Assembly: GCA_023134715.1 (NCBI GenBank)
Contig: JAGLUP010000003.1
Location: forward strand, 2,019-66,018
Direction: 5' to 3'
From: Candidatus Parcubacteria bacterium
GTDB taxonomy: Bacteria > Patescibacteriota > Minisyncoccia > Minisyncoccales > JAGLUP01
Length of the DNA stretch: 64,000 bases
This document shows positions 1,821 to 45,361 of the stretch, one piece after another. Below the pieces are notes generated by a model. It worked only from the letters and a program-made list of their open reading frames with translations. It was not told the DNA's origin and did not search any database. How positions within the stretch are numbered: the stretch's first letter is position 1; every line of letters starts with the position of its first letter. A program made the translations under genes and the position numbers.

Positions 1821-3590
1821 ATGGTGCGAAACGAGATTAAAAGTTTAATAGAGCAGGCGATAAAACAACTTCAAAAGCAAAAAAAACTTGCTAAATTTGA
1901 TATTCCTGAAATTTTAGTAGAGCATCCAGAAAATAGAGCGTATGGAGATTATAGTACAAATATTGCTTTACAGATTGCCAAGACGATTAAAAAAAATCCA
2001 AAAGAAATAGCAGAAGCTATCAAATCCAAAATCCAAAATCCAAATTATTCCAAATCAAATCCAAAATCCAAAATCCAAATTTTGGAAAAAATTGAAATAG
2101 CAGGTCCGGGATTTATCAATTTTTTTGTTTCAAAAGAATTTTTACAAAAACAAATCGCAGATGTTTTAAGGCAGGGCGATAAATTCGGTTCAAGTAAAAC
2201 AGGAAAAGGGAAAACCGTTGTTATAGATTATTCTTCTCCAAATATAGCCAAAGCGTTTGGAATAGGACATTTGCGTTCAACAATTATTGGTCAATCTCTT
2301 TATAATATCTATAAATTTTTGGGATGGAAAACTATTGGAGACAATCATCTTGGAGATTGGGGGACTCAATTCGGGAAGCTTATTTATCAAATTAAAGAAA
2401 AAAAAGTATTTCTTAAAGATTTAACAATTGAAAAATTAGAAAAATTATATATTGAATTCCACAGGGAAGCAGAAAAAAATCCAGAGATGGAAAAACAAGC
2501 AAGAGCTTGGTTTCAAAAATTAGAAGCGAGAGACAAGGAAGCTAAAAAAATTTGGCAGGATTGTAGGGCTATAAGCTTAAAAGAATTTCAGAAAATTTAC
2601 AATTTGCTTGGAATAAAAATTGATTATACGATTGGAGAAAGTTTTTATAAAGATATGGCTAAAGACATTATTGCTGAGGCAATCGAGAAAAAAGTTGCGA
2701 TTCAAAGTCAGGGAGCAATAATTATTAAATACAAAAAGGATAAGTTTCCTCCAGTTATAATTTTAAAGTCGGACAAAGCAACCACTTATTTAGCTAGAGA
2801 TTTAGCGGCTGTTAAATATAGGATATCTCGCTGGCATCCAAACCTTTTTATTTATGAAGTCGGAGCCGATCAATATCTTTTTTTAAGGCAATTATTTTTA
2901 GCTGTTGAATTTTTGGGATGGGAGAAGAAAGAAAAATTTATTCATGTTGTCCATGGATTAGTTCGCCGAAAACAAGGAAAATTTTCAACCAGAAAAGGGG
3001 AGACCATCCATTTAGAAGATGTTTTGAAAGAAGCAGTAAAAAGAGCAAGAGAGATTATTGAAAAATCAGAGACGAGCAAGGGATTTTCTAAAAAAGAAAA
3101 AGAAAAAATCGCAAAAATGGTCGGCATAGGAGCGATAAAATACAATGATCTGTCTCAACATTACAGTAAAGATATAATTTTTAATTGGGAAAAAGTTTTA
3201 AATCTTAAAGGAAATTCTGGACCTTACCTTCAATATACAATTACCCGTTGCCAAAGCGTAATAAAGAAGTCAAAAGTCCAACCTAGGAGTTTGCAAAAAG
3301 CTGATTTTGAATTATTTGATTTTAAAAAAGAAGAAGAAAATATTTTAAAAACTATTTATAAATTTCCTGAAATTGTTCAAGAGTCAGCTGATAAATTTTC
3401 GCCTAATTTGCTTTGTAATTTTGCCTTTGATTTGGCTCAAAAATATAATCATTTTTATAATATTTGTCCGATTATTCAAGCGGAAAGTATCAAGGAGAAA
3501 GAATTTAGATTGGCTTTAACTGCGGCTACGAGTCAGGTTTTAAAAAATTGCCTTAATCTTTTAGGTATTTCCGCGCCAGAAAAGATGTAA
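1821..3590 (+). CDS. argS: arginine--tRNA ligase
   Basis: 589 aa. AGPGFINFF, SSPNIAKAFGIGHLRST (HIGH-type), DNHLGDWGTQFG and a C-terminal anticodon-binding region. Confidence 0.95.
   Translation: MVRNEIKSLIEQAIKQLQKQKKLAKFDIPEILVEHPENRAYGDYSTNIALQIAKTIKKNPKEIAEAIKSKIQNPNYSKSNPKSKIQILEKIEIAGPGFINFFVSKEFLQKQIADVLRQGDKFGSSKTGKGKTVVIDYSSPNIAKAFGIGHLRSTIIGQSLYNIYKFLGWKTIGDNHLGDWGTQFGKLIYQIKEKKVFLKDLTIEKLEKLYIEFHREAEKNPEMEKQARAWFQKLEARDKEAKKIWQDCRAISLKEFQKIYNLLGIKIDYTIGESFYKDMAKDIIAEAIEKKVAIQSQGAIIIKYKKDKFPPVIILKSDKATTYLARDLAAVKYRISRWHPNLFIYEVGADQYLFLRQLFLAVEFLGWEKKEKFIHVVHGLVRRKQGKFSTRKGETIHLEDVLKEAVKRAREIIEKSETSKGFSKKEKEKIAKMVGIGAIKYNDLSQHYSKDIIFNWEKVLNLKGNSGPYLQYTITRCQSVIKKSKVQPRSLQKADFELFDFKKEEENILKTIYKFPEIVQESADKFSPNLLCNFAFDLAQKYNHFYNICPIIQAESIKEKEFRLALTAATSQVLKNCLNLLGISAPEKM
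2021..2085 (+). repeat. in-frame heptamer array (AAATCCA)x3 ... (AAATCCA)x3 inside argS
   Basis: Sequence caaatccaaaatccaaaatccaaattattccaaatcaaatccaaaatccaaaatccaaattttgg encodes KSKIQNPNYSKSNPKSKIQ. Confidence 0.85.
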
Positions 3591-3595
3591 AAAAT

Positions 3596-4327
3596 ATGAA
3601 GTTTAATATTAATACAATAAGTGATGAGAAAATTAAAGAAATAGAAAAGATAAAGAATAAACGTTCAATAATTTCGACAATTCAAAAAACAAAACAAAAA
3701 GGATTAAATCCTATTATTGCTGAAATTAAAAGAAAAAGTCCGAGCATTGGGATAATAAAAGATATTGACATTGTGGAAGCTGCGAAACAAATGGAAAAAG
3801 GAGGAGCAAGTGGAATATCAGTGCTTACAGATAAGCATTTTAGCGGGAGATTAGATGATTTAAAAAAAGCAAAACAAGCAGTAAAAATTCCAGTATTATG
3901 CAAAGATTTTTTTGTAGATGAATTTCAGATTTATCAAGCGTATGCTTGCGGCGCAGACATAGTGCTTTTAATTGCAAGGATATTAAAAGAAAAAACCAAA
4001 AGATTTGTAGAAAAAGTTCATGAATTAGGAATGGAGGCCTTGGTTGAAATACACAATGAAGAAGATTTGAAATTTGCTTTAAATTCTAACGCAAAATTAA
4101 TTGGAATAAATAACAGAGATTTGAAGACATTAAAAATAGATTTAGCTGTTACAGAAAGATTGGCGTCAAAAATTCCGCAAGACAGAATAAAAATAAGCGA
4201 AAGCGGAATCAGGAGCAGAACTGATTTAGATAGAATGTTTAATCTCGGCATTGACGCGGCTTTAATCGGAACAGAAATAATGCTGTCTGATAATATAGAA
4301 AAAAAGGTAAAAGAATTAGTTTATTAG
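3596..4327 (+). CDS. trpC: indole-3-glycerol phosphate synthase
   Basis: IIAEIKRKSPS, ISVLTD, CKDFF, EIHNEE, GINNRDL, ISESGI motifs. Confidence 0.85.
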   Translation: MKFNINTISDEKIKEIEKIKNKRSIISTIQKTKQKGLNPIIAEIKRKSPSIGIIKDIDIVEAAKQMEKGGASGISVLTDKHFSGRLDDLKKAKQAVKIPVLCKDFFVDEFQIYQAYACGADIVLLIARILKEKTKRFVEKVHELGMEALVEIHNEEDLKFALNSNAKLIGINNRDLKTLKIDLAVTERLASKIPQDRIKISESGIRSRTDLDRMFNLGIDAALIGTEIMLSDNIEKKVKELVY

Positions 4328-4953: not shown

Positions 4954-5012
4954 TTGACAAAGTTGGGATATTTGGTATGCTTTGCTGTAGAAGGAGCTAA
5001 GCTCCTTTTTTT
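4954..5012 (+). promoter_or_regulatory. candidate ileS promoter (TTGACA-N16-TATGCT) plus leader hairpin AAGGAGC-TAA-GCTCCTT followed by T7
   Basis: TTGACA at 4954..4959, hairpin 4991..5007, T-run to 5012. The -35 is back-to-back with the hicB -35 (TGTCAAcaatagaTTGACA). Confidence 0.45.
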
Positions 5013-5062
5013 ATTTTAGATTTATTTGAAAAAAAGTGGAAAAGATGATATTTTAGAAGTAT

Positions 5063-8000
5063 ATGGAATTTAGTTTGCCTAAGAATGAGGAAAAGATTTT
5101 AAAGTTTTGGAAAGAACACAAAATTTTTGAGAAATCAATTGAACAGCGCAAAGGAGCGCGGATTTTTAGTTTTTATGATGGTCCTCCTTTTGCCACTGGC
5201 CTGCCTCATTATGGCCATATTTTGGCAACTACTATTAAAGACGCTGTTTTGCGCTATTGGGCAATGCAGGGATATCAAGTTCCCCGCCGAGTTGGCTGGG
5301 ATTGCCATGGTTTGCCAGTCGAAAATTTAATTGAAAAAGAGCTGGGATTGAAAACTAAAAAAGATATTGAAAAATTAGGCATTGGAAAATTTAACGAGTC
5401 GTGCCATGGTTCTGTTTTTCGATGCGTTAAAGAGTTTCAAAAGACATTGGAACGAGTCGGCCGTTGGGCTGATTATTCTAACGCTTACGCCACAATGGAC
5501 AATAATTACATAGAGTCGGTTTGGTGGGTGCTTGCTCAATTACATAAAAAAGGATTGGTTTATAAAGATTTTCGTGTAACTCCTTATTGTCCTCGTTGCG
5601 GCACTGCTCTTTCTAATTTTGAATTAAACCAGCCAGGGGCTTATCAAGAGATAGAAGATGAATCAATATATATAAAATTTTCGCTAAAAAAGAAAAAAAA
5701 TACTTATTTGTTGGTTTGGACAACCACCCCGTGGACTTTGCCGGCAAATACAGCTATTGCTATAAATCCTAAATTTGATTATGTGAAAATAAAAATTAAA
5801 AATGAGTATTTTATTTTAGCCAAAGAAAGATTAAATGTGTTAAGTAGTGATTATAAAGTTATAGAAAAATTTAAAGGAAAAGAGTTGATTGGGTTAGAGT
5901 ATAAAGCGTTATATCAAAAAATAGCAGACAAAACACAAAAAACAGGAAATATCTACAAAGTTGTGGCAGCGGATTTCGTGAGTTTGGAGGATGGAACCGG
6001 AATGGTTCATATCGCGCCGGCTTTTGGGGTAGATGATATGGAATTGGGCAAAAAAGAGAATTTGCCTGTTTTAATAACAGTAGATTTAGAAGGAAAAATT
6101 GTTAAGGATTCAGATATTCCAGGAGAGGGAAGATTTGTTAAAACAGCCGATAAAGACATTAAAGAGGATTTAGAAAAAAGAGATTTACTATTTAAGCAAG
6201 AGAAAATAATTCATAAGTATCCCTTTTGCTGGCGGTGCGACACGCCATTGCTTTATTATCCTCTTGATAGCTGGTATGTGGCTGTAACAAAATTTAAAGA
6301 ACAATTAATTAAAAATAATAAAAAAATCAGATGGGTGCCTGCTCATCTTAAAGAGGGTCGGTTTGGCAAGTGGCTTGAAAAAGCAAGAGATTGGTCGTTT
6401 TCCCGCAACCGTTATTGGGGAGCGCCTCTTCCAATTTGGGAGTGTAAAGAATGCGGACATAATAAGGTTATTAGCTCAAAAGAAGACCTGAAAAAGCAAA
6501 AATTTTCAAATAATAAATATTTTACTCTTAGACACGGATTAGCTCAGCAAAATGTGAAAGGAATTATTAGCATAACCCCTAATAATAATTATCATTTAAC
6601 CAAAATTGGAGAAATTCAGATAAAGAAAGCGGCAAGAGAAATAAAAAAACTTCTCAAAACACAAAAACTTGATTTAATTTTTGCTTCTGATTTTTTAAGA
6701 ACCAAAGAAACAGCGGAGATTATTGCTAAAGAAACTATGGCTAAAATAAAGTTTGATAAACGGCTTTGGGATATTAATTTAGGAGTTTGGGACGGCAAGT
6801 CAGTTTTACGATTTAAAGCAGAATTTTTAAAATCAAATAAAAAGCTTTTTTATGAAGCGCCGGAAAAAGGAGAGACATGGGTTAATTGTCGGAAAAGAAT
6901 GATTGATTTTATCCAGGATGTTGAGAAAAAATATAAAAATAAAAATATTTTAATTGTTTCCCATGGAGACCCTTTATGGCTTTTAGGCGGCGCGATGCAA
7001 GGATTAGAAAACGAGGAAATGTTTGGTTTTCTGGACAGAAAAAAGGGAGGCGTTAAGCCAGGAGAGCTTCAAGAAATTGAATACAGAAAATTTCCTTACA
7101 ATGAACAAGGAAAATTAGATTTTCATCGTCCTTATATTGATGAGGTAAAATTTATTTGTTCTAAGTGCGGCAAAAAGATGGAAAGAGTAAAAGAGGTTTT
7201 TGATTGTTGGTTTGAAAGCGGTTCAATGCCATACGCGCAATGGCATTATCCTTTTGAAAATAAAGAATTTGTTGAAAAAACTTTTCCTGCGGATTTTATA
7301 GCAGAAGGCATAGATCAAACCAGGGGATGGTTTTATACTTTAAATGTTCTTTCAACCGCTCTTTTCAATGAACCGGCTTTTAAAAATGTTGTTGTTAACG
7401 GATTAGTATTAGGCGAGGACGGGAAAAAACTTTCAAAACGTTTGAAAAATTATACTGCCCCAGAAATTATTTTTGACAACCAAGGAGCTGACGCTTTGCG
7501 TTATTTTTTGCTTTCCAGTGCTCAAATTGGCGAAAATTATATTGTTTCTGAAAAAAGAATTGCCGAGGTTTTGCGTCGAACAATTTTAACATTTTGGAAC
7601 TCTTTTATTTTTTTTGATACTTATGCTGATAAAAAATTTAGGTCAAGCAAAATCAAAAAATCAAAAAATATTTTAGATAAATGGATTATTTCTAAATTAA
7701 ATAGTTTGGATTTAGAAGTAGTTGAGTTGATGAATAAGTATGAGTTAACTAAAGCCACTCGCTTATTTGATGATTTTATTAATGATCTTTCAAATTGGTA
7801 TATTCGTCGGTCTAGAAGACGACTTCAAAAACCAAAAACAAAACAAGAAAAAGAAGAAGCGTCCCAGATTTTATATTACTTGCTTTTAAGTTTAACTAAA
7901 TTATTAGCTCCATTTACTCCTTTTATCAGCGAGGAAGTTTATCAAAAATTAGGAGGCAGAAAAGAGTCGGTTCACTTAGAGGACTATCCAAAGCCGGATA

Positions 8001-8524
8001 AAAAATTGATTGATAATGATTTAGAAAAAAAAATGAAGCGAGTACGAGAGATTACAGCTTTAGCTTTGGCAGAGCGAGCAGAAATAGGAATAAAAGTCAG
8101 ACAACCACTTAAAAAGCTAAAAATTAAAACACAAAACACAAAAATTCCAGAGGAATTATTAGAGCTAATAAAAGAAGAGGTTAATGTTAAAGAGATAGTT
8201 TTTGATAAAAAAATTAAAAAAGAGATAGAACTTGATGTAAAGATTACTTCAGAGCTAAAAGAAGAGGGAATGCTCAGAGAGGTTATTCGTCAGATTCAGG
8301 TAATGCGGAAAAAAGCTGGGTATAAGCCAAGACACAGAGTTTTGGTCCGCTATTTTGGTTCTTCTTTCTTAAATAAAGTTTTAGCCAGAAATAAAGAGTT
8401 TATTCTAAAAGAAGTTGTGGCTGAAGATTTTCGAGCAGGAGATAGACCGAGAATGGTTTTTGATATTGAACGGGAGGTAAAAGTTAATCAAGAAAAACTC
8501 TGGCTGGGAATCAGAAAAATTTAA
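5063..8524 (+). CDS. ileS: isoleucine--tRNA ligase (type 2-like) with inserted histidine-phosphatase domain
   Basis: 1153 aa. PPFATGLPHYGH (HIGH), WDCHGLP, editing-domain motifs, KLSKRLKN (KMSKS), DCWFESGSMPYAQ. Extra RHG...SHG domain encoded at about 6515..7085. Confidence 0.95.
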   Translation: MEFSLPKNEEKILKFWKEHKIFEKSIEQRKGARIFSFYDGPPFATGLPHYGHILATTIKDAVLRYWAMQGYQVPRRVGWDCHGLPVENLIEKELGLKTKKDIEKLGIGKFNESCHGSVFRCVKEFQKTLERVGRWADYSNAYATMDNNYIESVWWVLAQLHKKGLVYKDFRVTPYCPRCGTALSNFELNQPGAYQEIEDESIYIKFSLKKKKNTYLLVWTTTPWTLPANTAIAINPKFDYVKIKIKNEYFILAKERLNVLSSDYKVIEKFKGKELIGLEYKALYQKIADKTQKTGNIYKVVAADFVSLEDGTGMVHIAPAFGVDDMELGKKENLPVLITVDLEGKIVKDSDIPGEGRFVKTADKDIKEDLEKRDLLFKQEKIIHKYPFCWRCDTPLLYYPLDSWYVAVTKFKEQLIKNNKKIRWVPAHLKEGRFGKWLEKARDWSFSRNRYWGAPLPIWECKECGHNKVISSKEDLKKQKFSNNKYFTLRHGLAQQNVKGIISITPNNNYHLTKIGEIQIKKAAREIKKLLKTQKLDLIFASDFLRTKETAEIIAKETMAKIKFDKRLWDINLGVWDGKSVLRFKAEFLKSNKKLFYEAPEKGETWVNCRKRMIDFIQDVEKKYKNKNILIVSHGDPLWLLGGAMQGLENEEMFGFLDRKKGGVKPGELQEIEYRKFPYNEQGKLDFHRPYIDEVKFICSKCGKKMERVKEVFDCWFESGSMPYAQWHYPFENKEFVEKTFPADFIAEGIDQTRGWFYTLNVLSTALFNEPAFKNVVVNGLVLGEDGKKLSKRLKNYTAPEIIFDNQGADALRYFLLSSAQIGENYIVSEKRIAEVLRRTILTFWNSFIFFDTYADKKFRSSKIKKSKNILDKWIISKLNSLDLEVVELMNKYELTKATRLFDDFINDLSNWYIRRSRRRLQKPKTKQEKEEASQILYYLLLSLTKLLAPFTPFISEEVYQKLGGRKESVHLEDYPKPDKKLIDNDLEKKMKRVREITALALAERAEIGIKVRQPLKKLKIKTQNTKIPEELLELIKEEVNVKEIVFDKKIKKEIELDVKITSELKEEGMLREVIRQIQVMRKKAGYKPRHRVLVRYFGSSFLNKVLARNKEFILKEVVAEDFRAGDRPRMVFDIEREVKVNQEKLWLGIRKI

Positions 8525-9262: not shown

Positions 9263-10066
9263 ATGATGAATATAAAACAAAAAGGGTTTACTATCGTAGA
9301 GCTTTTAGTTGTTCTTGCTATATTTGGAATTTTATCTGGTCTTGTTGTAGTAACACTTAAAAGCATGAAAGACGAAGCTCGGCTGAAAAAAGCAATGGAA
9401 TTTGCTCATACCGTGAGAGTTAGCTTGGGTTCTGACTTAGTCGGCGAATGGACTTTTGACGATTCCAGCGATTTAGGAAGAGATACCAGCGGTTATGAAA
9501 ACCATGCAACTGTTCACGGAACTACTCCAGTTGATGGAATCGTTAGGGGAGCTTTGAGTTTTAATGGAACCAGTGACCATATTGACTGTGGAAACAATGA
9601 GAGTTTATGCTCTAATGATAATTCATGGACTATAGAAGCGTGGTTTAACTGGGGCGGCAAAAGTGGAGAGAATATAATTTATAATAAAGAAAATTTATAT
9701 GAGGCAAGAGTTAATAATGGTTATTTTCAATATGCATGGCAGCCTCATTGGCATTGGGATGGAGGAACAGATTTTTCTGTAGATTCAAATAAGTGGCATC
9801 ATGCAGTAGTTGTTTATGATAAGTCGAGCCAATATGTTTATAAAGATGGAGAGCTTGTTTATACAAGGCCTCAAGAAGGGAATATAGGAAATAATACTAA
9901 TAAATTATTAATAGGCGCTCGCGGTCATACATCTCCTCGCAATTATTTTGATGGCGCAATCGATGAAGTGCGGATTTATAATCGGGCATTGACAACAGCG
10001 GAGATTCAAAAGTATTATGCCGAAGGCGCTGCTAAATATGGAATATGTCTTTTAGAAAAAAAATAA
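9263..10066 (+). CDS. type IV pilin-like protein with LamG/concanavalin-type lectin head
   Basis: Prepilin motif KGFTIVELLVVLAIFGIL. C-terminal LamG_3-like pattern (GALSFNGTSDHID..., WHHAVVVYD, FDGAIDEVRIYNRAL). Confidence 0.8.
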   Translation: MMNIKQKGFTIVELLVVLAIFGILSGLVVVTLKSMKDEARLKKAMEFAHTVRVSLGSDLVGEWTFDDSSDLGRDTSGYENHATVHGTTPVDGIVRGALSFNGTSDHIDCGNNESLCSNDNSWTIEAWFNWGGKSGENIIYNKENLYEARVNNGYFQYAWQPHWHWDGGTDFSVDSNKWHHAVVVYDKSSQYVYKDGELVYTRPQEGNIGNNTNKLLIGARGHTSPRNYFDGAIDEVRIYNRALTTAEIQKYYAEGAAKYGICLLEKK

Positions 10067-11700
10067 CAATTTTAATTATAGTTTTAACCTTGGGATTAGG
10101 GATAGTCGGCTATTGGGAGCATCAGAAAAATCTTTATTCAAAAGATATTTTAAAATTGGAAATTTTAGGCCCGGAAACAGCAGAAACAGGAGAAGAGATT
10201 GAATATACGGTAAAATATAAGAATAACGGAAATGTTCGATTAGAAGACGCTAAGCTTATTTTTGAATATCCAGAATATTCTTTAATCAAGCAAGGCGATT
10301 CATTAAGGGTAGAACAGGAATTAGACGATATTTATCCTGGGGAGGAAAAAACCTTTCACTTTGAATGTCGGCTTTTAGGGAAAGAGAAAGAGATGAAAAC
10401 TGCCAAGGCCTTTATTTTTTATCGTCCTAAAGATTTAAAAGCTCGATATGAGTCAAAAACAAGTTTTAGCACAAAGATTGAATTTATCCCTTTGACTTTT
10501 GAATTTGACCTTTCTTCTAAAGTTGACAGTATGAAAGAAATTTCTTTTGCTCTAAATTATTTTTCCAACATAGATTATTCCTTAACTGATTTAAGAGTTA
10601 AAATTGAATATCCTTCTGGATTTGAATTTTTAGAGAGTCAGCCTCAATCTTTAGAAAAAATAGAATGGGAAATTGGCTCTTTAAATAAAGCTGAAGGAGG
10701 AAGGATAAAAATTAAAGGAAAACTGCAAGGAGAAATAGGAGATCAAAAAACTTTTCGAGCGATTTTGGGCATTTGGCAGGAAGGAGAGTTTATCCTTTTA
10801 AAAGAGGCGGTTAAAACAGTAGAAATTATTGAACCCTCTTTATACATAAATCAGGAAATTAATGGTTCTTCTCAATATACTGCTGCTCCTGGCGATTTTT
10901 TGCATTATGAGATTTTCTTTAAAAATATTGGAGAAGAGGCGTTTGAGAAATTATTTTTGGTAGTAAAACTTGAAGGCAAGCCATTTGATTTAGAATCTTT
11001 AAAAACGTCAGAAGGGGAATATAAATCTGGAGATAATTCAATTATTTGGGATTGGAGAAAAGTTTCAAAACTTCGATTTTTGGACGCTCAAGAAGAGGGG
11101 GTAGTTGAATTTTGGGTGAACTTAAAAGAGGAATGGCAAGTGTCTGGACCCCAAGATAAAAACTCTTTTATTAAAAATACAGTTATTCTTTCTCAAACCA
11201 AAGAAGAATTTAAAACAAAAATCAATTCAAAAATAGAATTGACTCAAAAAGGTTATTTTGAGCAGGAATTTTGGGAAAATTCAGGAACAATTCCTCCAAA
11301 AGTTGGAGAAACAACTGCTTATACAATTTTGTGGCAGGCTAAGAATTTTTATAACGACGCAGAGAATGTAAAAGTAAAAGCTATTTTGCCTCAAGAAGTT
11401 AAATTAACCGGCGAAATTTTTCCAAAAGAATCAAAGCTTAGTTTTGATTTTAAATCCAGGGAGCTTGTTTGGGACATAGGAGATCTTAAAGCAGGTGAAG
11501 AAAATCCCGTGCTTGCCTTTCAAGTTGTCTTAACTCCAAGTTCTCAACAAAAAGGTCAGACACCGTCTCTTATTGGAGAAGCAAGAATTATTTGCGAAGA
11601 CCAGTGGACAGAGCAGATTTTAGAAAGCAATGCCGAAACTGTCAACACCACTTTACCGGATGATGAAACAGTTAGCGAAGAACAGGGAATAGTTCAATAG
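10045..11700 (+). CDS. membrane-anchored surface protein with repeated Ig-like (DUF11/CARDB-like) segments; function unknown
   Basis: 551 aa. N-terminal TM helix, repeated segments of type GEEIEYTVKYKNNGNV. Overlaps the preceding pilin gene by 22 nt. Confidence 0.55.
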   Translation: MSFRKKITILIIVLTLGLGIVGYWEHQKNLYSKDILKLEILGPETAETGEEIEYTVKYKNNGNVRLEDAKLIFEYPEYSLIKQGDSLRVEQELDDIYPGEEKTFHFECRLLGKEKEMKTAKAFIFYRPKDLKARYESKTSFSTKIEFIPLTFEFDLSSKVDSMKEISFALNYFSNIDYSLTDLRVKIEYPSGFEFLESQPQSLEKIEWEIGSLNKAEGGRIKIKGKLQGEIGDQKTFRAILGIWQEGEFILLKEAVKTVEIIEPSLYINQEINGSSQYTAAPGDFLHYEIFFKNIGEEAFEKLFLVVKLEGKPFDLESLKTSEGEYKSGDNSIIWDWRKVSKLRFLDAQEEGVVEFWVNLKEEWQVSGPQDKNSFIKNTVILSQTKEEFKTKINSKIELTQKGYFEQEFWENSGTIPPKVGETTAYTILWQAKNFYNDAENVKVKAILPQEVKLTGEIFPKESKLSFDFKSRELVWDIGDLKAGEENPVLAFQVVLTPSSQQKGQTPSLIGEARIICEDQWTEQILESNAETVNTTLPDDETVSEEQGIVQ

Positions 11701-11714
11701 AATTACTAATTTTC

Positions 11715-12159
11715 AATTTCTAATTTCTATTAAATCTTCAATGACTAAATTTTCAAACAGCAAGAACAAAGAATATGATTTAGAGGAAAGAACAGCGAAA
11801 TTTAGCGAAGATATAATAGAATTTATAAAGAGCATTAAGCGAGATGATATTAACAGAAATATTATTACACAATTAGCAAGAGCAGCAACCTCTGTTGGAG
11901 CAAATTGCTGCGAAGCAAATGCCTCAAGCTCAAAACGAGATTTTAGAAATAAGATATACATCTGTAAAAAGGAAACTAATGAAACAAAATACTGGCTTAG
12001 AATATTGGCTAAATATTACCCTGAGTCAAAAGAAAAAATAAGAGTTTTCTGGAAAGAAGCTCATGAATTTCATCTAATTTTTCAAAAAATCACCAACACG
12101 CTGGACAAGAAAAAAGTTTAGAAATTAAAAAATTAGACATTTAATAGAAATTAGAAATT
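11715..12159. mobile_element. IVS-like cassette: four-helix-bundle ORF bounded by perfect 21-bp inverted repeats built from AATTTCT heptamers
   Basis: 11715..11735 AATTTCTAATTTCTATTAAAT is the exact reverse complement of 12139..12159. Extra AGAAATT units extend to about 12173. Confidence 0.6.
11741..12121 (+). CDS. four-helix-bundle protein (23S rRNA intervening-sequence protein family)
   Basis: 126 aa. QLARAATSVGANCCEA, RDFRNKIYICKKETNETKYWL motifs typical of the family. Confidence 0.8.
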   Translation: MTKFSNSKNKEYDLEERTAKFSEDIIEFIKSIKRDDINRNIITQLARAATSVGANCCEANASSSKRDFRNKIYICKKETNETKYWLRILAKYYPESKEKIRVFWKEAHEFHLIFQKITNTLDKKKV

Positions 12160-12181
12160 AGAAATTAGAAATTCTTAAATT

Positions 12182-13447
12182 ATGTATAAAAAAATTACAT
12201 TAAAAAACGGTTTGCGGATTATTACTGTTCCTATGAAAAACACTCAGACAGCGACTGTTTTAGTGTTGGTTGGAGCTGGTTCAAAATATGAGAATAAAGA
12301 AAATAACGGCATTTCTCATTTTTTAGAACATATGTTTTTTAAGGGAACAAAGAAGAGACCGAATACTTTAAAAATTGCCGAGACGCTGGATAAAGTTGGA
12401 GGAGTGTTTAACGCTTTCACTGGAAAAGAATATACCGGCTATTGGGCAAAAGTTGATTCTCAACATTTAGATTTAGCCATGGATTGGGTTTCAGATATGT
12501 TTTTAAATTCAAAAATAGAGGAAAAAGAAATAAAAAAAGAAAAAGGAGTGATAATTGAAGAATTAAATATGATTTTAGACACACCAATGAGTTATATTGG
12601 AGATCTTTGGGAAAAACTTCTTTACGGGAATCAGCCAGCTGGATGGTTTATAATTGGAGAAGAGAAGAATATCTTAAAATTTAAGAGAAAACATTTTTTA
12701 AATTACCAAAAAAATCATTATTCAGCTCATAATACTATAATTTGTGTCGCCGGGAATATAAATCCAAAAAATGTAGAGAAAAAAATTAAGAAATATTTTA
12801 AAAGCATAGGAGCAATTATCCCAAAGTCAAAATTGAAAACAATTGAAAAGCAAAATCAGCCGCAATTTTTAATTCATTTTAAGAAAACAGACCAAACCCA
12901 CCTTTGCTTGGGAGTAAGAGGTTGTGATTTATTTGCCTCGCAAAAATACGCGCAAGCGGTTTTAGCCGCGATTTTAGGCGGTTATATGAGTTCCCGGCTT
13001 CATATTTCTGTAAGAGAAAGACAGGGATTGGCTTATTATATCCATACTTATTCAGAAAACACCACTGATACTGGTTACTTAATGACGTTAGCCGGAATAA
13101 ACAATCAATCAGTAGAAAAAGCGATAAAATTGATTTTAAAAGAATATAAAGATTTGAAAAATAGAAAGATAAATCAAGAAGAACTGCAAAAAGCAAAGGA
13201 CTATTTGAAAGGAACTATGACGTTGTCCTTAGAGCCATCTGACGCTCAAGCGTCTTTCTATGCCAGTCAGGAATTATTATCTCAAAAAACCTTAACTTTA
13301 AAAGAAAAATGCGCTAAAATTGATAAAATAACCAGAGAAGATATTTTAAATACAGCTCAAGATATTTTTCAGCCGGAAAAACTGAATTTAGCCCTTATCG
13401 GACCGTTTAGAGATAAAAATAAATTTCAGAAATTATTAAAATTATGA
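12182..13447 (+). CDS. M16 (pitrilysin/insulinase) family zinc peptidase
   Basis: 421 aa. HFLEHMFFKGT (HxxEH) motif. Confidence 0.85.
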   Translation: MYKKITLKNGLRIITVPMKNTQTATVLVLVGAGSKYENKENNGISHFLEHMFFKGTKKRPNTLKIAETLDKVGGVFNAFTGKEYTGYWAKVDSQHLDLAMDWVSDMFLNSKIEEKEIKKEKGVIIEELNMILDTPMSYIGDLWEKLLYGNQPAGWFIIGEEKNILKFKRKHFLNYQKNHYSAHNTIICVAGNINPKNVEKKIKKYFKSIGAIIPKSKLKTIEKQNQPQFLIHFKKTDQTHLCLGVRGCDLFASQKYAQAVLAAILGGYMSSRLHISVRERQGLAYYIHTYSENTTDTGYLMTLAGINNQSVEKAIKLILKEYKDLKNRKINQEELQKAKDYLKGTMTLSLEPSDAQASFYASQELLSQKTLTLKEKCAKIDKITREDILNTAQDIFQPEKLNLALIGPFRDKNKFQKLLKL

Positions 13448-15074: not shown

Positions 15075-15085
15075 TTATTAAATTC

Positions 15086-15146
15086 CAGTTTCTAAATTTT
15101 AAATTCTAAATATAATTTTGGATTTTGGATTTTGGATTTTGGATTT
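15086..15146 (+). repeat. heptamer arrays TTCTAAA/TTTTAAA/TTCTAAA then (TTTTGGA)x4
   Basis: (TTTTGGA)x4 at 15116..15143 is the reverse complement of the TCCAAAA array inside argS. The track ORF start at 15125 lies in this repeat and is probably spurious. Confidence 0.8.
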
Positions 15147-35787: not shown

Positions 35788-36383
35788 AGATTTTTTGTTT
35801 TAGCTAAAAGCCAGGTTTTTTTGTTTAGTTCAAGATATTTTTCAGGAACTATTTTTTTGATTGCCTGTAAAATTGAGTCGGGGCTTAAGGGAATTAAATT
35901 TTTAAAGCAAGCCAAAGAGATTAAAAAAACTCCGGCTGTCACAGGGGTTCCAGTTTGTTTTTTACAAAGAGCTGAAGCTGGGATTAAAATTGTTTCCTGG
36001 GAAAATTTTTCCAAGTTTTTTAAAATAGCGCTTTTTCCCAATAATTTTTTACCGGGAATCGGGATAAAAAAATCATTCACTAAAAAAATTGTCTTTGCTT
36101 GTTTTGAAGCGTAATAACAGGCCTTTAATGTTTCCTGCATTTCTAAAGCAATTACTAAATCTGCGCTTCCTTGTTTCACTAAAGGAGAAAAAATTTCTTT
36201 GCCAAAACGCAAATGAACCTCAACCGAGCCGCCTCGTTGAGATAAACCGTGAAGCTCAGAGGTTTTAATATCTTTTCCTTCTATCAAAACTGCTTGGCTG
36301 ATGATTTTAAGAATTGTAATCAGCCCCTGGCCGCCAGTTCCAACAATTACGATATTAAATTGATTTTTTGTTATATGTTCCAT
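35784..36383 (-). CDS. iorB: indolepyruvate/2-oxoacid:ferredoxin oxidoreductase, beta (gamma-like) subunit
   Basis: 199 aa. IVGTGGQGLITILKII...HGLSQRGGSV. Confidence 0.75.
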   Translation of the reverse strand: MEHITKNQFNIVIVGTGGQGLITILKIISQAVLIEGKDIKTSELHGLSQRGGSVEVHLRFGKEIFSPLVKQGSADLVIALEMQETLKACYYASKQAKTIFLVNDFFIPIPGKKLLGKSAILKNLEKFSQETILIPASALCKKQTGTPVTAGVFLISLACFKNLIPLSPDSILQAIKKIVPEKYLELNKKTWLLAKTKNL

Positions 36384-36393
36384 GTTCTATGTT

Positions 36394-38061
36394 TTATGTT
36401 TTTAGTCGGACGCAGGGACGGCGGGCGATAATTACGGAAACCTCTTTTTTATTTAAAAATTCTTTAATAGTTTTTTCCATTTCTTTTGTATTTATCGGGT
36501 CAATAACTTTCAAGCTTTTAACTCCGCAGGCGCTAACAATATTTTCAATTTTTATTGTATCTGCGCCTCCTGGATGCGGCTGCTGTCCGGTCATTGCCGT
36601 GGTGCTGTTATTCATAATAATTATTAAAGGATTTGATTTGTTGAAAATAGTATTAATTAACGCGGGAATGCCTGAGTGGAAAAAAGATGAATCACCAATA
36701 AAAGTAATTAATTTTTGCTTGCTAATGCGTTTAATGCCGTGAGCAATTCCTATTGAGGAGCCCATACAGTAAAGATAATCTTGAATATTATGAGGAGGGA
36801 ATCCAGCTAACATATAGCAGCCGATTCCTCCGCCAAAAATTGTTCCTTTCGGAGCAGCTTTTTTAACTGCTGAAAATACAAACCAGTAGGGGCAGCCCGG
36901 ACAAAGGTTAGGATGGCGCTTGGCCAATTTTATTTTCTTGAATTTTTGAATATGCTTTTGAAAATTAAGATTTACTTTTTTGCCTGTGATTTCAGAAATA
37001 GCTGAAATTACATATTCTGGCTTGAGCTCTCCGACCTCCGGTAAAACATTTTTCCCAAAAATTTCTATAGATGAGTTTGCTTTTCTGGCTAAAATTTCAA
37101 TTTCTCTTTCAAGATAAGGGTCAAGTTCTTCAACTATTAAAACTTTTTTTAATCTGCCAATAAATTTTTGTATTTTTTTATTTGGCAAAGGGTGAAAAAA
37201 TCCTAATTTTAAAACAGGCAAAGAAATGTTTAGTTCTTTTAAGGCCTCCATTACATATAAATAAGAAGCTCCAGAAGCAATTATCCCAACCTTAGAAGCA
37301 AAGGAGACCCGACCTCCTTTATTCATGAAGGAGGTCGGGTCTCCTGTTTTAATTTTGTTGAGGGTGCTTTTTTCAGAAAATTCTCTTATTTTTTCAATTT
37401 TTTCCAAAAGTTCTTGATGCATTTCTAAAACCCTGGGCGGCATTGTTGAGAATTGGTGGACATTTTTGACAAATTTTGCTTTTATTTTTCCTTTTTTGAT
37501 TTTTTCTAAAACAACTGGCGCTGATTGGTGGGAAACTCTGGTTGTTTCTCTAATCATTATTGGAATTTTAAATTTTTCAGAAAGCTCAAAAGCAAATTTA
37601 GTAAAGTCTTTACACTCTTGAGGAAAAGAAGGTTCTAAAATTGGAATATGAGAGAGCGAAGCAAAACCACGGGTGTTTTCTTCTGATTGGGCCGAACTCC
37701 AACAACTGGGGTCGTCAGCTATTAAGATTACCATTCCTCCTTTAATGCCAGTATAAACCAATGGCAGCAAAAAGTCAGAAGCAACGTTTAAGCCAAAATT
37801 TTTCATTGCTACTAAAGTTCTTAAACCGCAAAAAGAAGCTCCGGCTGCCGCTTCCATTGCTGTTTTTTCATTTGTAGAGAATTCAAAAACTACTCCTGCT
37901 TTTTTAGCGATTTTATAAAAGGTGTTTCCAATTTCTGAAGCAGGAGTGCCAGGATAAGTTGAAACAAATTGAACTCCAGCTTCCAACGCTCCTCTTACAA
38001 TCGCCTCATTACCTAAAAGCATTATTTCCTTGCCTTGTTTGTTTTCTAAAATTTCTTCCAT
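36394..38061 (-). CDS. iorA: indolepyruvate ferredoxin oxidoreductase alpha-like subunit (TPP-binding)
   Basis: 555 aa. LLGNEAIVRGALEAGV...YPGTPASEI, CPGCPY, GDSSFFHSG. No ferredoxin-type Cys clusters seen at the C-terminus. Confidence 0.75.
   Translation of the reverse strand: MEEILENKQGKEIMLLGNEAIVRGALEAGVQFVSTYPGTPASEIGNTFYKIAKKAGVVFEFSTNEKTAMEAAAGASFCGLRTLVAMKNFGLNVASDFLLPLVYTGIKGGMVILIADDPSCWSSAQSEENTRGFASLSHIPILEPSFPQECKDFTKFAFELSEKFKIPIMIRETTRVSHQSAPVVLEKIKKGKIKAKFVKNVHQFSTMPPRVLEMHQELLEKIEKIREFSEKSTLNKIKTGDPTSFMNKGGRVSFASKVGIIASGASYLYVMEALKELNISLPVLKLGFFHPLPNKKIQKFIGRLKKVLIVEELDPYLEREIEILARKANSSIEIFGKNVLPEVGELKPEYVISAISEITGKKVNLNFQKHIQKFKKIKLAKRHPNLCPGCPYWFVFSAVKKAAPKGTIFGGGIGCYMLAGFPPHNIQDYLYCMGSSIGIAHGIKRISKQKLITFIGDSSFFHSGIPALINTIFNKSNPLIIIMNNSTTAMTGQQPHPGGADTIKIENIVSACGVKSLKVIDPINTKEMEKTIKEFLNKKEVSVIIARRPCVRLKT
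37302..37345. repeat. 18-bp perfect palindrome of the GACCCGACC family inside the iorA coding sequence
   Basis: AGGAGACCCGACCTCCTT-tattcatg-AAGGAGGTCGGGTCTCCT. Read in frame on the minus strand as TGDPTSFMNKGGRVSF. Confidence 0.85.
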
Positions 38062-42097: not shown

Positions 42098-42682
42098 TTA
42101 TTTTTGTTTCATTACTGCTTCAATCGCTTCAACTGTTTGTTTCATAATTTGTTTAACAATTTTTTCTTCGTCTTTTGTGAATTTTTCCAGAACAAAATTT
42201 TCAGCACCAGGGAACGGTCTATATGACTGCTCGGGTTTTATTCCGAGGCGGAAGCGGGTAAAGTTTTTTGTTTTAATTTCGTCAATTATTGATTGGACTC
42301 CTTTATGGCCGGCAGAGCGACTATCTTGAGAAATTTTTATTTTTCCTAAAGGCAAATCTAAATCGTCATGTATTACTATAATATCTGAGCTTTTAATTTT
42401 ATAAAAAGCAATTAGAGATTTGACCGCTTGTCCAGAATTATTCATAAATGTCTGAGGTTTTGCCAAGATAATTTTTTCTCCACTCAAAACAGCCTTAGAA
42501 ATCAAAGCATTATTTTTTTTTGCTTGTCCGCCGAAGCCTCGGCGAAGGCGGAATAATTCAAAAACAGGAAAATCATTTTTCTTTCTAAATTCGTCAATAA
42601 CTTGAAAACCAAAATTATGCCGGGTTTTTTGATATTTTTCCTCAGGATTCCCTAATCCTATGATTAAAATTGATTGCTTCAT
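42098..42682 (-). CDS. pth: peptidyl-tRNA hydrolase
   Basis: 194 aa. GLGNPEEKYQKTRHNFGF, IVIHDDLDLPLGKIK, GHKGVQSI motifs. Confidence 0.9.
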   Translation of the reverse strand: MKQSILIIGLGNPEEKYQKTRHNFGFQVIDEFRKKNDFPVFELFRLRRGFGGQAKKNNALISKAVLSGEKIILAKPQTFMNNSGQAVKSLIAFYKIKSSDIIVIHDDLDLPLGKIKISQDSRSAGHKGVQSIIDEIKTKNFTRFRLGIKPEQSYRPFPGAENFVLEKFTKDEEKIVKQIMKQTVEAIEAVMKQK

Positions 42683-44612: not shown

Positions 44613-44942
44613 ATGGATTGTCTTTTTTGTAAAATTGTTAATAAAGAGATTTCTTCAGAAATTATTTACGAAGATGAAGAAATTTTAGTGCTTAAAGATA
44701 CAAATCCTAAAGCGGCAATTCATTTTTTAATTGTTCCCAAAAAGCATATTGAATCAATCAATCATTTACAAGAATCTGACAGAGAGATTATTAGTAATTT
44801 AATTTTTACGGCTAAGAAAATAGCAAAAGAGAAAAGTATTGAAGGTTATAAATTAGTTTTCAATGTTGGCAGAAAAGGAGGCCAAATAATTGACCACATT
44901 CACCTTCATTTTTTAGCCGGAGAATTAGCGCAAACACCATAA
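44613..44942 (+). CDS. HIT-family (histidine triad) protein
   Basis: 109 aa. CLFCKIV start, HIHLHFL triad. Confidence 0.85.
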   Translation: MDCLFCKIVNKEISSEIIYEDEEILVLKDTNPKAAIHFLIVPKKHIESINHLQESDREIISNLIFTAKKIAKEKSIEGYKLVFNVGRKGGQIIDHIHLHFLAGELAQTP

Positions 44943-45110
44943 AAAACTAAAAACTAAAAACGAAAAATGAAAAACGACAAAGAAAAATTAAAAATTTTTT
45001 AAAAATAATAAATAATAAATAATAAATAATAAATAATAAATAATAAATAATAAATTAAAAATTTTAGATTTTAGATTGTGATTTTACATTTTTCATTTTC
45101 TATTTTTAAT
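44942..45110. repeat. composite heptamer-repeat element: (AAAAACT-like)x5, (ATAATAA)x7 core, inverted (ATTTTAG-like)x7
   Basis: Left array 44942..44976, perfect (ATAATAA)7 at 45005..45053, right array 45061..45110. The arms are approximately reverse-complementary (for example CGAAAAATGAAAAACG vs CATTTTTCATTTTCT). Confidence 0.8.
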
Positions 45111-45124
45111 TTAGCGAAGCGTTT

Positions 45125-45361
45125 ATGCCTTTAGAAATCAAAAAAAAGGAAAGAGAGACATCTCAAAGTTTAATTCACCGTTTTTCACAAAGAATGCGAA
45201 GAAGCGGGATTTTGCGTCGGGCAAGAGAAATAAGGTTTAGGGAGCGCTCTTTGAGTCGTCAATTGAGAAAAAAAGCCGCTCTTAGAAGAGAAGAGCTTAA
45301 AAAAGAATACGAGAAACTGGAAAAACTTGGTAAGCCAAAAATTGGCAAATCAAGAAAGTAA
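45125..45361 (+). CDS. rpsU: ribosomal protein bS21
   Basis: 78 aa, very basic. SLIHRFSQRMRRSGILRRAREIRFRERS pattern typical of S21. Confidence 0.75.
   Translation: MPLEIKKKERETSQSLIHRFSQRMRRSGILRRAREIRFRERSLSRQLRKKAALRREELKKEYEKLEKLGKPKIGKSRK

Follow-up and report, generated by a model that had tools for sequence, protein, structure and literature searches.

The window analysed here is a 64-kb stretch of a 391-kb scaffold (contig JAGLUP010000003.1) from a Candidatus Parcubacteria bacterium. Between the genes of a surface protein and a peptidase it carries a cassette of ~477 bp (11699-12175), in which a four-helix-bundle gene is enclosed by two mirrored arrays of heptamers. The cassette lies in the sense orientation, flush with the stop codon on its upstream side and the start codon on its downstream side; the upstream TAG shares 2 nt with its left arm, and the downstream ATG follows 6 nt past its right arm. 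All evidence presented below comes from comparative sequence analysis.

Cassette architecture and encoded protein

A perfect 21-bp inverted repeat was described here in the first-pass annotation, and it is exact, as AATTTCTAATTTCTATTAAAT (11715-11735) is the reverse complement of 12139-12159. The inverted repeat actually extends beyond this 21-nt core to arms of 60 nt (11699-11758 and 12116-12175), which are 80% complementary and cover the start codon with the first six codons on the left and the last codons with the stop codon on the right. The 126-aa open reading frame (ORF; 11741-12121) is separated from the left core by 5 nt and from the right core by 17 nt, just as annotated. The left arm reads in order AATTACT, AATTTTC, AATTTCT, AATTTCT, ATTAAAT and CTTCAAT, followed by the start codon and the first six codons. 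Additional AGAAATT units had also been noticed on the right; exact tandem copies start at 12146, 12153, 12160 and 12167, and two of them lie outside the core. Tandem Repeats Finder (TRF) assigned a period of 7 to both arms, at 11701-11729 and 12118-12173.

When up to three mismatches are allowed, the core 21-mer has only these two sites in the 64-kb window. Dinucleotide-preserving shuffles contain 0.09 core sites on average, and two sites occurred in 0 of 100 shuffles. The sense-strand fold has a closing stem around the ORF (z = -4.8) that was matched by no shuffle. A consensus scan of the arms detected nothing resembling a promoter or a terminator. A weak TATTAA hexamer, 7 nt upstream of the ATG, was considered as an own leaderless promoter, but this idea was dropped because the hexamer is not conserved across the cassette family.

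Table 1 Coordinates of the cassette, its parts and its host genes in the window
Feature	Position	Strand	Basis or remark
Upstream host gene, 551 aa, DUF11/DUF7619 surface-protein type	10045..11700	+	TAG stop 11698-11700 abuts left arm
Left arm, 60 nt	11699..11758	+	80% complementary to 12116-12175; same layout in 85 related loci
Left-arm perfect 21-nt core	11715..11735	+	exact 21-mer in at least 120 metagenome contigs
Four-helix-bundle gene, 126 aa, ATG start (PF05635 23S_rRNA_IVP, TIGR02436)	11741..12121	+	profile scores, model, selection
Right arm, 60 nt: last codons, TAG stop, ATTTAAT, AGAAATT units	12116..12175	+	80% complementarity
Right-arm perfect 21-nt core	12139..12159	+	exact complement of left core
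Four exact tandem AGAAATT units	12146..12173	+	last two outside perfect core
Downstream host gene, M16 peptidase, 421 aa	12182..13447	+	orthologues 83, 81, 72, 72% identical without upstream cassette

The ORF scores 58.8 bits against Pfam PF05635 (23S_rRNA_IVP; cut-off 33.8) and 74.4 bits against TIGR02436 (four helix bundle protein; cut-off 24). Its AlphaFold2 (AF2) monomer model, with a predicted local distance difference test (pLDDT) score of 89.3, has helices at residues 5-30, 39-61, 65-92 and 94-123. The best Foldseek matches of the model are 2RLD (template modelling (TM) score 0.72-0.86) and 2GSC, the crystal structures of this family, with five chains in each entry, and phmmer matched the protein to 2RLD at E = 6.7e-12. 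The ORF is therefore a member of the four-helix-bundle family first noted in 23S rRNA intervening sequences (IVSs), as the earlier annotation had recognized. The next structural matches are to Avd (8UB8, 4DWL; TM ~0.57-0.66), the accessory protein of diversity-generating retroelements (DGRs), and the Avd profile (DivGenRetAVD) did not match the window protein. No relatives were found in viral contigs, and searches with PADLOC and PHROGs gave no match to the protein.

Related cassettes in Patescibacteria

The protein has 1326 homologues at E < 1e-5, many of them 75-90% identical and labelled Patescibacteria. We fetched 80 genomic loci of homologues, in which ORFs were called mechanically, and aligned the closest nine. 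In this alignment similarity has abrupt limits: it begins with the first heptamer, ~40 nt upstream of the ATG, and ends past the last one, ~55 nt after the stop codon. The flanks are unrelated. Nearly every locus has the same layout, in which 3-4 AAT-N4 heptamers, an ATTAAAT/AATCAAT unit and TTTNNAATG with the start codon stand before the gene, and their mirror image stands after the stop codon. The gene-bearing form measures ~460-480 bp and usually has the termini AATTT...AAATT.

The mirror symmetry is specific to the cassette gene and to the individual locus. The flank inverted-repeat score has a median of 46 for 85 cassette genes, compared with 18 among the 296 remaining ORFs of these loci (p = 1.8e-35), and arm pairs score 46 within their own locus vs 34.5 across different loci. 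Even the order of repeat-unit variants is mirrored in 28 of 60 loci, where ~3 would be expected. The unit type varies by subfamily (AATTTCT, AATTTTC, AATTTTA, AATTACC, AAAAAGT and others), but is identical on both sides of a gene. No direct repeat that would indicate target-site duplication flanks the arms in ~65 loci. The four-helix-bundle gene is the sole ORF of the cassette, with no transposase-like gene in or beside it.

Judged from this shared layout, the cassette is one member of a large family, whose IVS-type palindromic elements occupy the junctions between cistrons in Patescibacteria operons. The design of an ORF in a stem between protein-coding genes, which the first-pass annotation had proposed for this one locus, thus turns out to be family-wide, recurring in 85 other Patescibacteria members and in five of six plasmid copies described below. 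That annotation had reasoned that its proposal would fail if no other family member had inverted-repeat flanks and orthologous loci always contained the gene. The 85 members have inverted heptamer flanks, and the closest orthologous loci (L083-L088) were found to be without the gene.

Four loci add variants to this picture. One PrgI/VirB4-type secretion operon (L012) carries three different cassettes at consecutive junctions (1468-1836, 2687-3058, 5001-5390), whose proteins are 45, 60 and 74% identical to the window's protein and which have their own unit type each. Genes of a more classical TIGR02436 subfamily, weakly similar to the Avd model, also have inverted heptamer arms, of CATGAAA in L057 (734-1102, minus strand) and of AAAATCA in L006 (6135-6491). 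A GxxExxY gene (TIGR04256, 105 bits) in L051 (1736-2134) sits in a 23-nt inverted repeat flush between a stop and a start; it represents a second small-gene family in the cassette style, with arms that are not clearly heptameric.

Genomic context and orthologous loci

Among 76 loci with close neighbours on both sides, both neighbours are co-oriented with the cassette in 61, one is opposed in 15, and both are opposed in none. If orientation were random between co-oriented gene pairs, the 61:0 outcome would have a probability of ~2^-61. The distance from the upstream stop to the cassette ATG is ~40 nt, and that from the cassette stop to the next start is ~50-65 nt. Because these spacings equal the arm lengths, the arms fill the whole intergenic space. 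Recurrent hosts are the PrgI/VirB4 type IV secretion operon, type IV pilus genes, glycosyltransferases and giant surface proteins.

The loci of the closest M16 orthologues (L083-L088; identities in Table 1) are without the cassette. Their gene order is DUF11 / aminoacyl-tRNA synthetase / M16, and the exact empty site cannot be read because this order differs from that in the window. In L083 the orthologue of the upstream gene stops at the same codon position with no cassette behind it. Just before the M16 start of this cassette-less locus, a 20-nt sequence (3975-3997), TTTAGAAATCTTTAGATT ATG, resembles the outer end of the right arm in the window (12160-12184), TTAGAAATTCTTAAATT ATG. This likeness could be a remnant, a preferred target or chance. 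In another species, a related cassette occupies the same dprA-topA junction and is 100% identical in 10 of 10 samples.

Gene-less hairpin forms

The ends of the cassette also occur without the gene. A Moraniibacteriota metagenome-assembled genome (L045) has three gene-less hairpins of ~115 nt (6882-6990, 7487-7600, 8006-8120), which occupy the atpE-atpF, atpF-atpH and atpH-atpA junctions of the ATP synthase operon. Each consists of two arms joined directly, and the folds have z = -3.8 to -6.1. Two of them share one internal junction, so the short form itself has multiplied.

A search for other copies of the arm sequence, as the first-pass annotation had advised, found none elsewhere in the window; beyond it, at least 120 metagenome contigs contain an exact match to the 21-mer. 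Among the matches listed, 28 occurrences of the 21-mer have a strong partner arm. Fifteen of these 28 are ORF-less hairpins of 87-151 nt. Three others represent complete, gene-bearing cassettes of 464-477 nt, of which one was counted from both arms; one arm pair 460 nt apart surrounds a small ribosomal protein L32-like gene, and several arm pairs 830-1450 nt apart bracket other host genes. At a lower threshold, the same matches include 27 such mini forms (minis) of 73-198 nt, most of which lie within ~20 nt of co-oriented ORFs on both sides. Dispersed ORF-less copies are thus present in related genomes and metagenomes, and the window has a single copy of the element.

In the minis the 60-nt arm is complete, so that even the first and last codons are retained. 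Minis tend to be similar to the cassette found in their own locus (median rank 8 of ~85, from 13 minis), although not in all loci.

Full-length RNase III genes were found on three metagenome contigs with the window's 21-mer, at ~3942 in L149, ~1461 (minus strand) in L157 and ~2846 in L180, ~0.5-1.3 kb from window-type arms. In L180 two arms bracket the ribosomal protein L32-like gene, which adjoins rnc.

Plasmid and rRNA relatives

Six plasmid-borne family members from cultured organisms were examined. All six lie between co-oriented genes, and five, from Cyanobacteria, Chloroflexota and Spirochaetota, have inverted heptamer arms of other sequence. The Dolichospermum copy has four TAATTCG units in a perfect 33-bp repeat, and the Nostoc flagelliforme copy has four AATTCAA units in a perfect 31-bp repeat. 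The arms are made of AATCCCC/AATCGTA heptamers in Planktothrix, of GGAAAGN in Treponema and of GATGAAN in Chlorohelix, whereas the heptamer-arm match of the Bernardetia copy is weak and unclear. Incidentally, on the Planktothrix, Dolichospermum and Chlorohelix plasmids (L100, L099, L104) the four-helix-bundle genes are located inside defence operons, where gene orders include DISARM drmD, four-helix-bundle gene and MmeI-type enzyme, or helicase, four-helix-bundle gene and DNA methylase.

The rRNA members of the family have comparable ends. The 428-nt IVS in the 23S rRNA of Coxiella ends in a 28-bp stem, and its ORF is preceded by three tandem GACAGAT heptamers whose copy number varies; RNase III cleavage occurs at the first repeat, and the ORF is decaying and probably untranslated (PMC4990558). 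In bacteria of the candidate phyla radiation (CPR), 23S_rRNA_IVP ORFs occur in insertions of both 16S and 23S rRNA (PMC11270868). The period of seven is thus conserved across phyla and the unit sequence is not.

Selection on protein and arms

Among 13 close cassettes, the median proportion of synonymous differences (pS) is 0.72, near saturation, vs 0.17 for nonsynonymous differences (pN). Two copies within one genome have a pS of 0.23 and a pN of 0.01. Arm difference in well-anchored pairs is only ~0.14-0.26, and the AAT-N4 unit and the ATTAAAT anchor are ~75-85% conserved while synonymous sites are saturated. Because pN is far below pS and the arms have diverged little, the protein and the primary sequence of the arms are both under purifying selection.

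Possible processing of operon transcripts

We consider it probable, on balance, that the cassette is an IVS-type palindromic element that resides in operons rather than in rRNA, and that its arms pair in the transcript as a likely substrate of RNase III. The cassette is probably transcribed within the host operon, because it has no detectable promoter or terminator of its own. In the transcript, base pairing of the arms would give a long A+U-rich stem of ~50 pairs, the 21 perfect ones included, which by analogy would be the kind of substrate that RNase III cuts in the homologous rRNA IVSs. Cutting would free the ORF RNA in panhandle form and disconnect the two flanking cistrons from each other. 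The closing stem, the lack of an own promoter or terminator, the sense-only orientation, the precedent of rRNA IVSs and the RNase III genes on related contigs are all consistent with an RNA role. What we infer is co-transcription, cleavage, binding by the protein, an effect on the neighbours and the means of spread.

Several observations weigh against this reading. Mismatches between the arms show no excess of the G:U type on the sense strand (110 vs 119), and isolated mismatches show no strand bias in it either (50 vs 48), so this test gave no sign of selection for RNA pairing as such. The minus strand folds almost as well as the sense strand (z = -4.1 vs -4.8). The AAT-N4 units are conserved far more strongly than pairing would require, which suggests sequence-specific recognition. 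A search of the 64-kb window for an RNase III signature motif found none. As for movement, a scan of the window found no second copy of the arm or the gene, and the cassette at the dprA-topA junction, being fixed and identical in ten samples, shows no recent movement, so that the element is not hyperactive. Mobility over evolutionary time, in line with the idea of a small mobile element, is supported by the sharp boundaries, the unrelated flanks and the gene-less derivatives, but the window gives no sign of a second copy or of recent movement. Taken together, cassettes and hairpins look like a class of small mobile elements that has been overlooked.

The arms could instead act as DNA or as protein-binding sites, with RNA pairing as a by-product of their mirror symmetry. 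The heptad arrays could then be element ends or operators, read by the encoded four-helix-bundle protein, as a putative pentamer, or by a recombinase acting in trans. Contiguous arrays of 7-bp heptads are known as protein operators, for example of the omega repressor of pSM19035. Conservation of the AAT-N4 units and the ATTAAAT anchor despite saturated synonymous sites, the missing G:U wobble bias and the equal folding of both strands all fit such a role, as do the minis, which are widespread, tend to resemble the cassette of their own locus and, where they share one internal junction, have multiplied within one operon. We regard this explanation as somewhat unlikely, although it is the main and a serious rival. 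The cassette lacks a target-site duplication and a transposase-like gene in or beside it. None of its gene-bearing copies runs antisense to both of its neighbours, an orientation bias that would be unusual in a DNA transposon. DGR Avd, alone among family members in having a known activity, acts in an RNA-protein complex, and the homologous rRNA elements are processed as RNA. An RNA stem and a DNA or protein-binding site are not mutually exclusive. As the element's own reader of the heptamers, an Avd-like pentamer might bind the arms as RNA or DNA and be required for propagating or maintaining both cassettes and hairpins. The two would then be an autonomous and a non-autonomous partner, like RAYT (REP-associated tyrosine transposase) and REP (repetitive extragenic palindromic) sequences, and might move via an RNA intermediate; we offer this tentatively and think it rather improbable.

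Simpler origins of the locus fare worse. Heptamer arrays could be generic intergenic simple sequence with an ordinary gene between them, complementarity having arisen by independent slippage. Period 7 is common in the window (9 of 12 tandem arrays with at least four copies, two of the nine being the cassette arms), the genome is nearly without Shine-Dalgarno sites, so that arrays might be leader elements, and intergenic heptamers whose role is unknown have been reported from Beggiatoaceae, Cyanobacteria and Bacteroidetes (PMC4679880). On the other hand, mirroring and conservation extend to the arm segments that are not repeats, namely the ATTAAAT anchor and the codons at either end of the gene; the boundaries are sharp, the gene and arms travel jointly into unrelated contexts, and no inverted pairs were found among the other heptamer arrays of the window. 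Boundary alignment, mirrored unit order and inverted-repeat scores largely refute slippage, which we hold to be very unlikely. Still more improbable, to the point of being hardly credible, is that the gene is the avd gene of a DGR or belongs to a degenerate rRNA IVS left by rearrangement. The fold resembles that of Avd, as given above, and the family overlaps Avd (PMC10053308), but no reverse transcriptase domain occurs among the called genes within 6 kb, no template/variable repeat pair or long direct repeat was found, and the Avd model is unmatched by the protein. An Rfam scan of the window returned five tRNAs only and no rRNA, none was present in 13 related loci with unusually long spacers, and the ORF is intact and under purifying selection.

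Comparison with known systems

A close parallel to the cassette is the rRNA IVS with an S23p/PF05635 ORF of Coxiella burnetii and Leptospira (PMC4990558). The two share the protein family, an ORF inside terminal inverted repeats that form a stem of ~20-30 bp, tandem heptamers immediately before the start codon, a similar size (428 nt in Coxiella vs ~477 nt here), sporadic distribution, and ORF-bearing and ORF-less forms. They differ in that the window cassette lies between co-oriented protein-coding genes and not in an rRNA helix, in the sequence of the heptamer, and in the state of the ORF, which is intact and under strong purifying selection here but decaying and probably untranslated in Coxiella. 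RNase III excision, moreover, is demonstrated there, whereas it is inferred for the window cassette.

Transcribed intergenic palindromes such as REP sequences and bacterial interspersed mosaic elements (BIMEs), REPtrons and enterobacterial repetitive intergenic consensus (ERIC) sequences are likewise intercistronic and without target-site duplication. REPtrons in particular have a small gene between inverted repeat copies, and gene-less hairpins inside operons have their like in the atp operon of L045. The cassette, however, encloses a PF05635 four-helix bundle and not a Y1 (IS200/IS605-like) transposase, and its arms are A+T-rich heptamer arrays, whereas REPs are G+C-rich hairpins. REP-like units do occur in the same kinds of genome as the heptamer cassettes; genes with a PNHFHLV motif in L018 (5998-6666, minus strand) and L059 (3175-3879) are flanked by G+C-rich REP-like hairpins. 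We take this motif to be typical of RAYT-like (IS200/IS605-type) transposases.

Autonomous DNA transposons and their miniature inverted-repeat transposable elements (MITEs) have terminal inverted repeats as well, with ends shared by ORF-bearing and ORF-less forms. In contrast to them, the cassette lacks a target-site duplication and a recognizable transposase, and its long form is strictly sense. DGR Avd has a related four-helix-bundle fold and works bound to RNA and a reverse transcriptase, but neither a reverse transcriptase nor a template or variable repeat is present at the cassette, and the Avd model does not match. Intergenic heptanucleotide repeats, namely the short tandemly repeated repetitive (STRR) sequences of cyanobacteria and TAACTGA of Beggiatoaceae (PMC4679880), are also tandem 7-nt units, often directly before starts without a Shine-Dalgarno site, and share broad taxa (Cyanobacteria) with the cassettes. 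They are described as direct repeats without a linked gene, whereas the cassette arrays are mirrored around a specific gene, and the paper on them does not mention the four-helix-bundle gene family (PMC4679880).

The protein family, the rRNA IVSs that bear terminal repeats and the intergenic heptamers were each known already. Their combination looks to be undescribed, with four-helix-bundle genes that lie outside rRNA between mirrored heptamer arms in four phyla, and with minis in Patescibacteria. Our searches returned no literature on heptamer-flanked four-helix-bundle cassettes or on CPR palindromic elements, with subscription journals mostly outside their coverage, so that priority elsewhere is possible.

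Other features of the window

Besides the cassette arms, the window has heptamer arrays of several kinds. Eight AAATCCA units (2022-2079) lie inside the arginyl-tRNA synthetase frame (1821-3590) and are translated as ...IKSKIQNPNYSKSNPKSKIQI.... Intergenic arrays are TAAATTC (4.7 copies) followed by ATTTTGG (4.6 copies) at 15079-15146, TTTTATG (5.6 copies) at 36364-36402, and a 170-nt tract of several heptamers at 44939-45112 before a small S21-like ORF that starts at 45126. When this last tract (44936-45125) was tried as a mini hairpin, its fold was not significant (z = -1.3).

The isoleucyl-tRNA synthetase (5063-8524, 1153 aa) has a histidine-phosphatase domain, His_Phos_1 (PF00300), between the halves of its catalytic domain. 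Shine-Dalgarno sites are nearly absent upstream of ~47 window genes, and a TATAAT ends 6 nt before the ATG in several genes (e.g. 42098-42682 on the minus strand, 42735, 56462 and 61244). The TATAAT spacing suggests leaderless mRNAs.

Implications

The ~90 loci and the literature searches suggest that ORF-bearing rRNA IVSs and the very large four-helix-bundle family, both unexplained for decades, are faces of one kind of element, to which intergenic heptamers, a puzzle of similar age, may be related. Such an element would be a palindrome of heptamer arrays, bearing the gene or not, that is able to reside in mRNA operons as well as in rRNA. If an Avd-like pentamer does read the arms, one mechanism would account for rRNA IVSs, for the orphan genes of the 'four helix bundle protein' kind that occur by the thousand within operons and defence loci, and for the unexplained intergenic repeats of Cyanobacteria, Bacteroidetes, Beggiatoaceae and CPR. 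If RNase III cuts the arms, the cassettes would be built-in processing sites that reshape operon expression in genome-reduced bacteria, at type IV secretion, pilus and ATP synthase operons, and at defence loci in cultured cyanobacteria. Because the same architecture is present in cultured hosts (Nostoc, Dolichospermum, Planktothrix and Treponema), this idea is directly testable.

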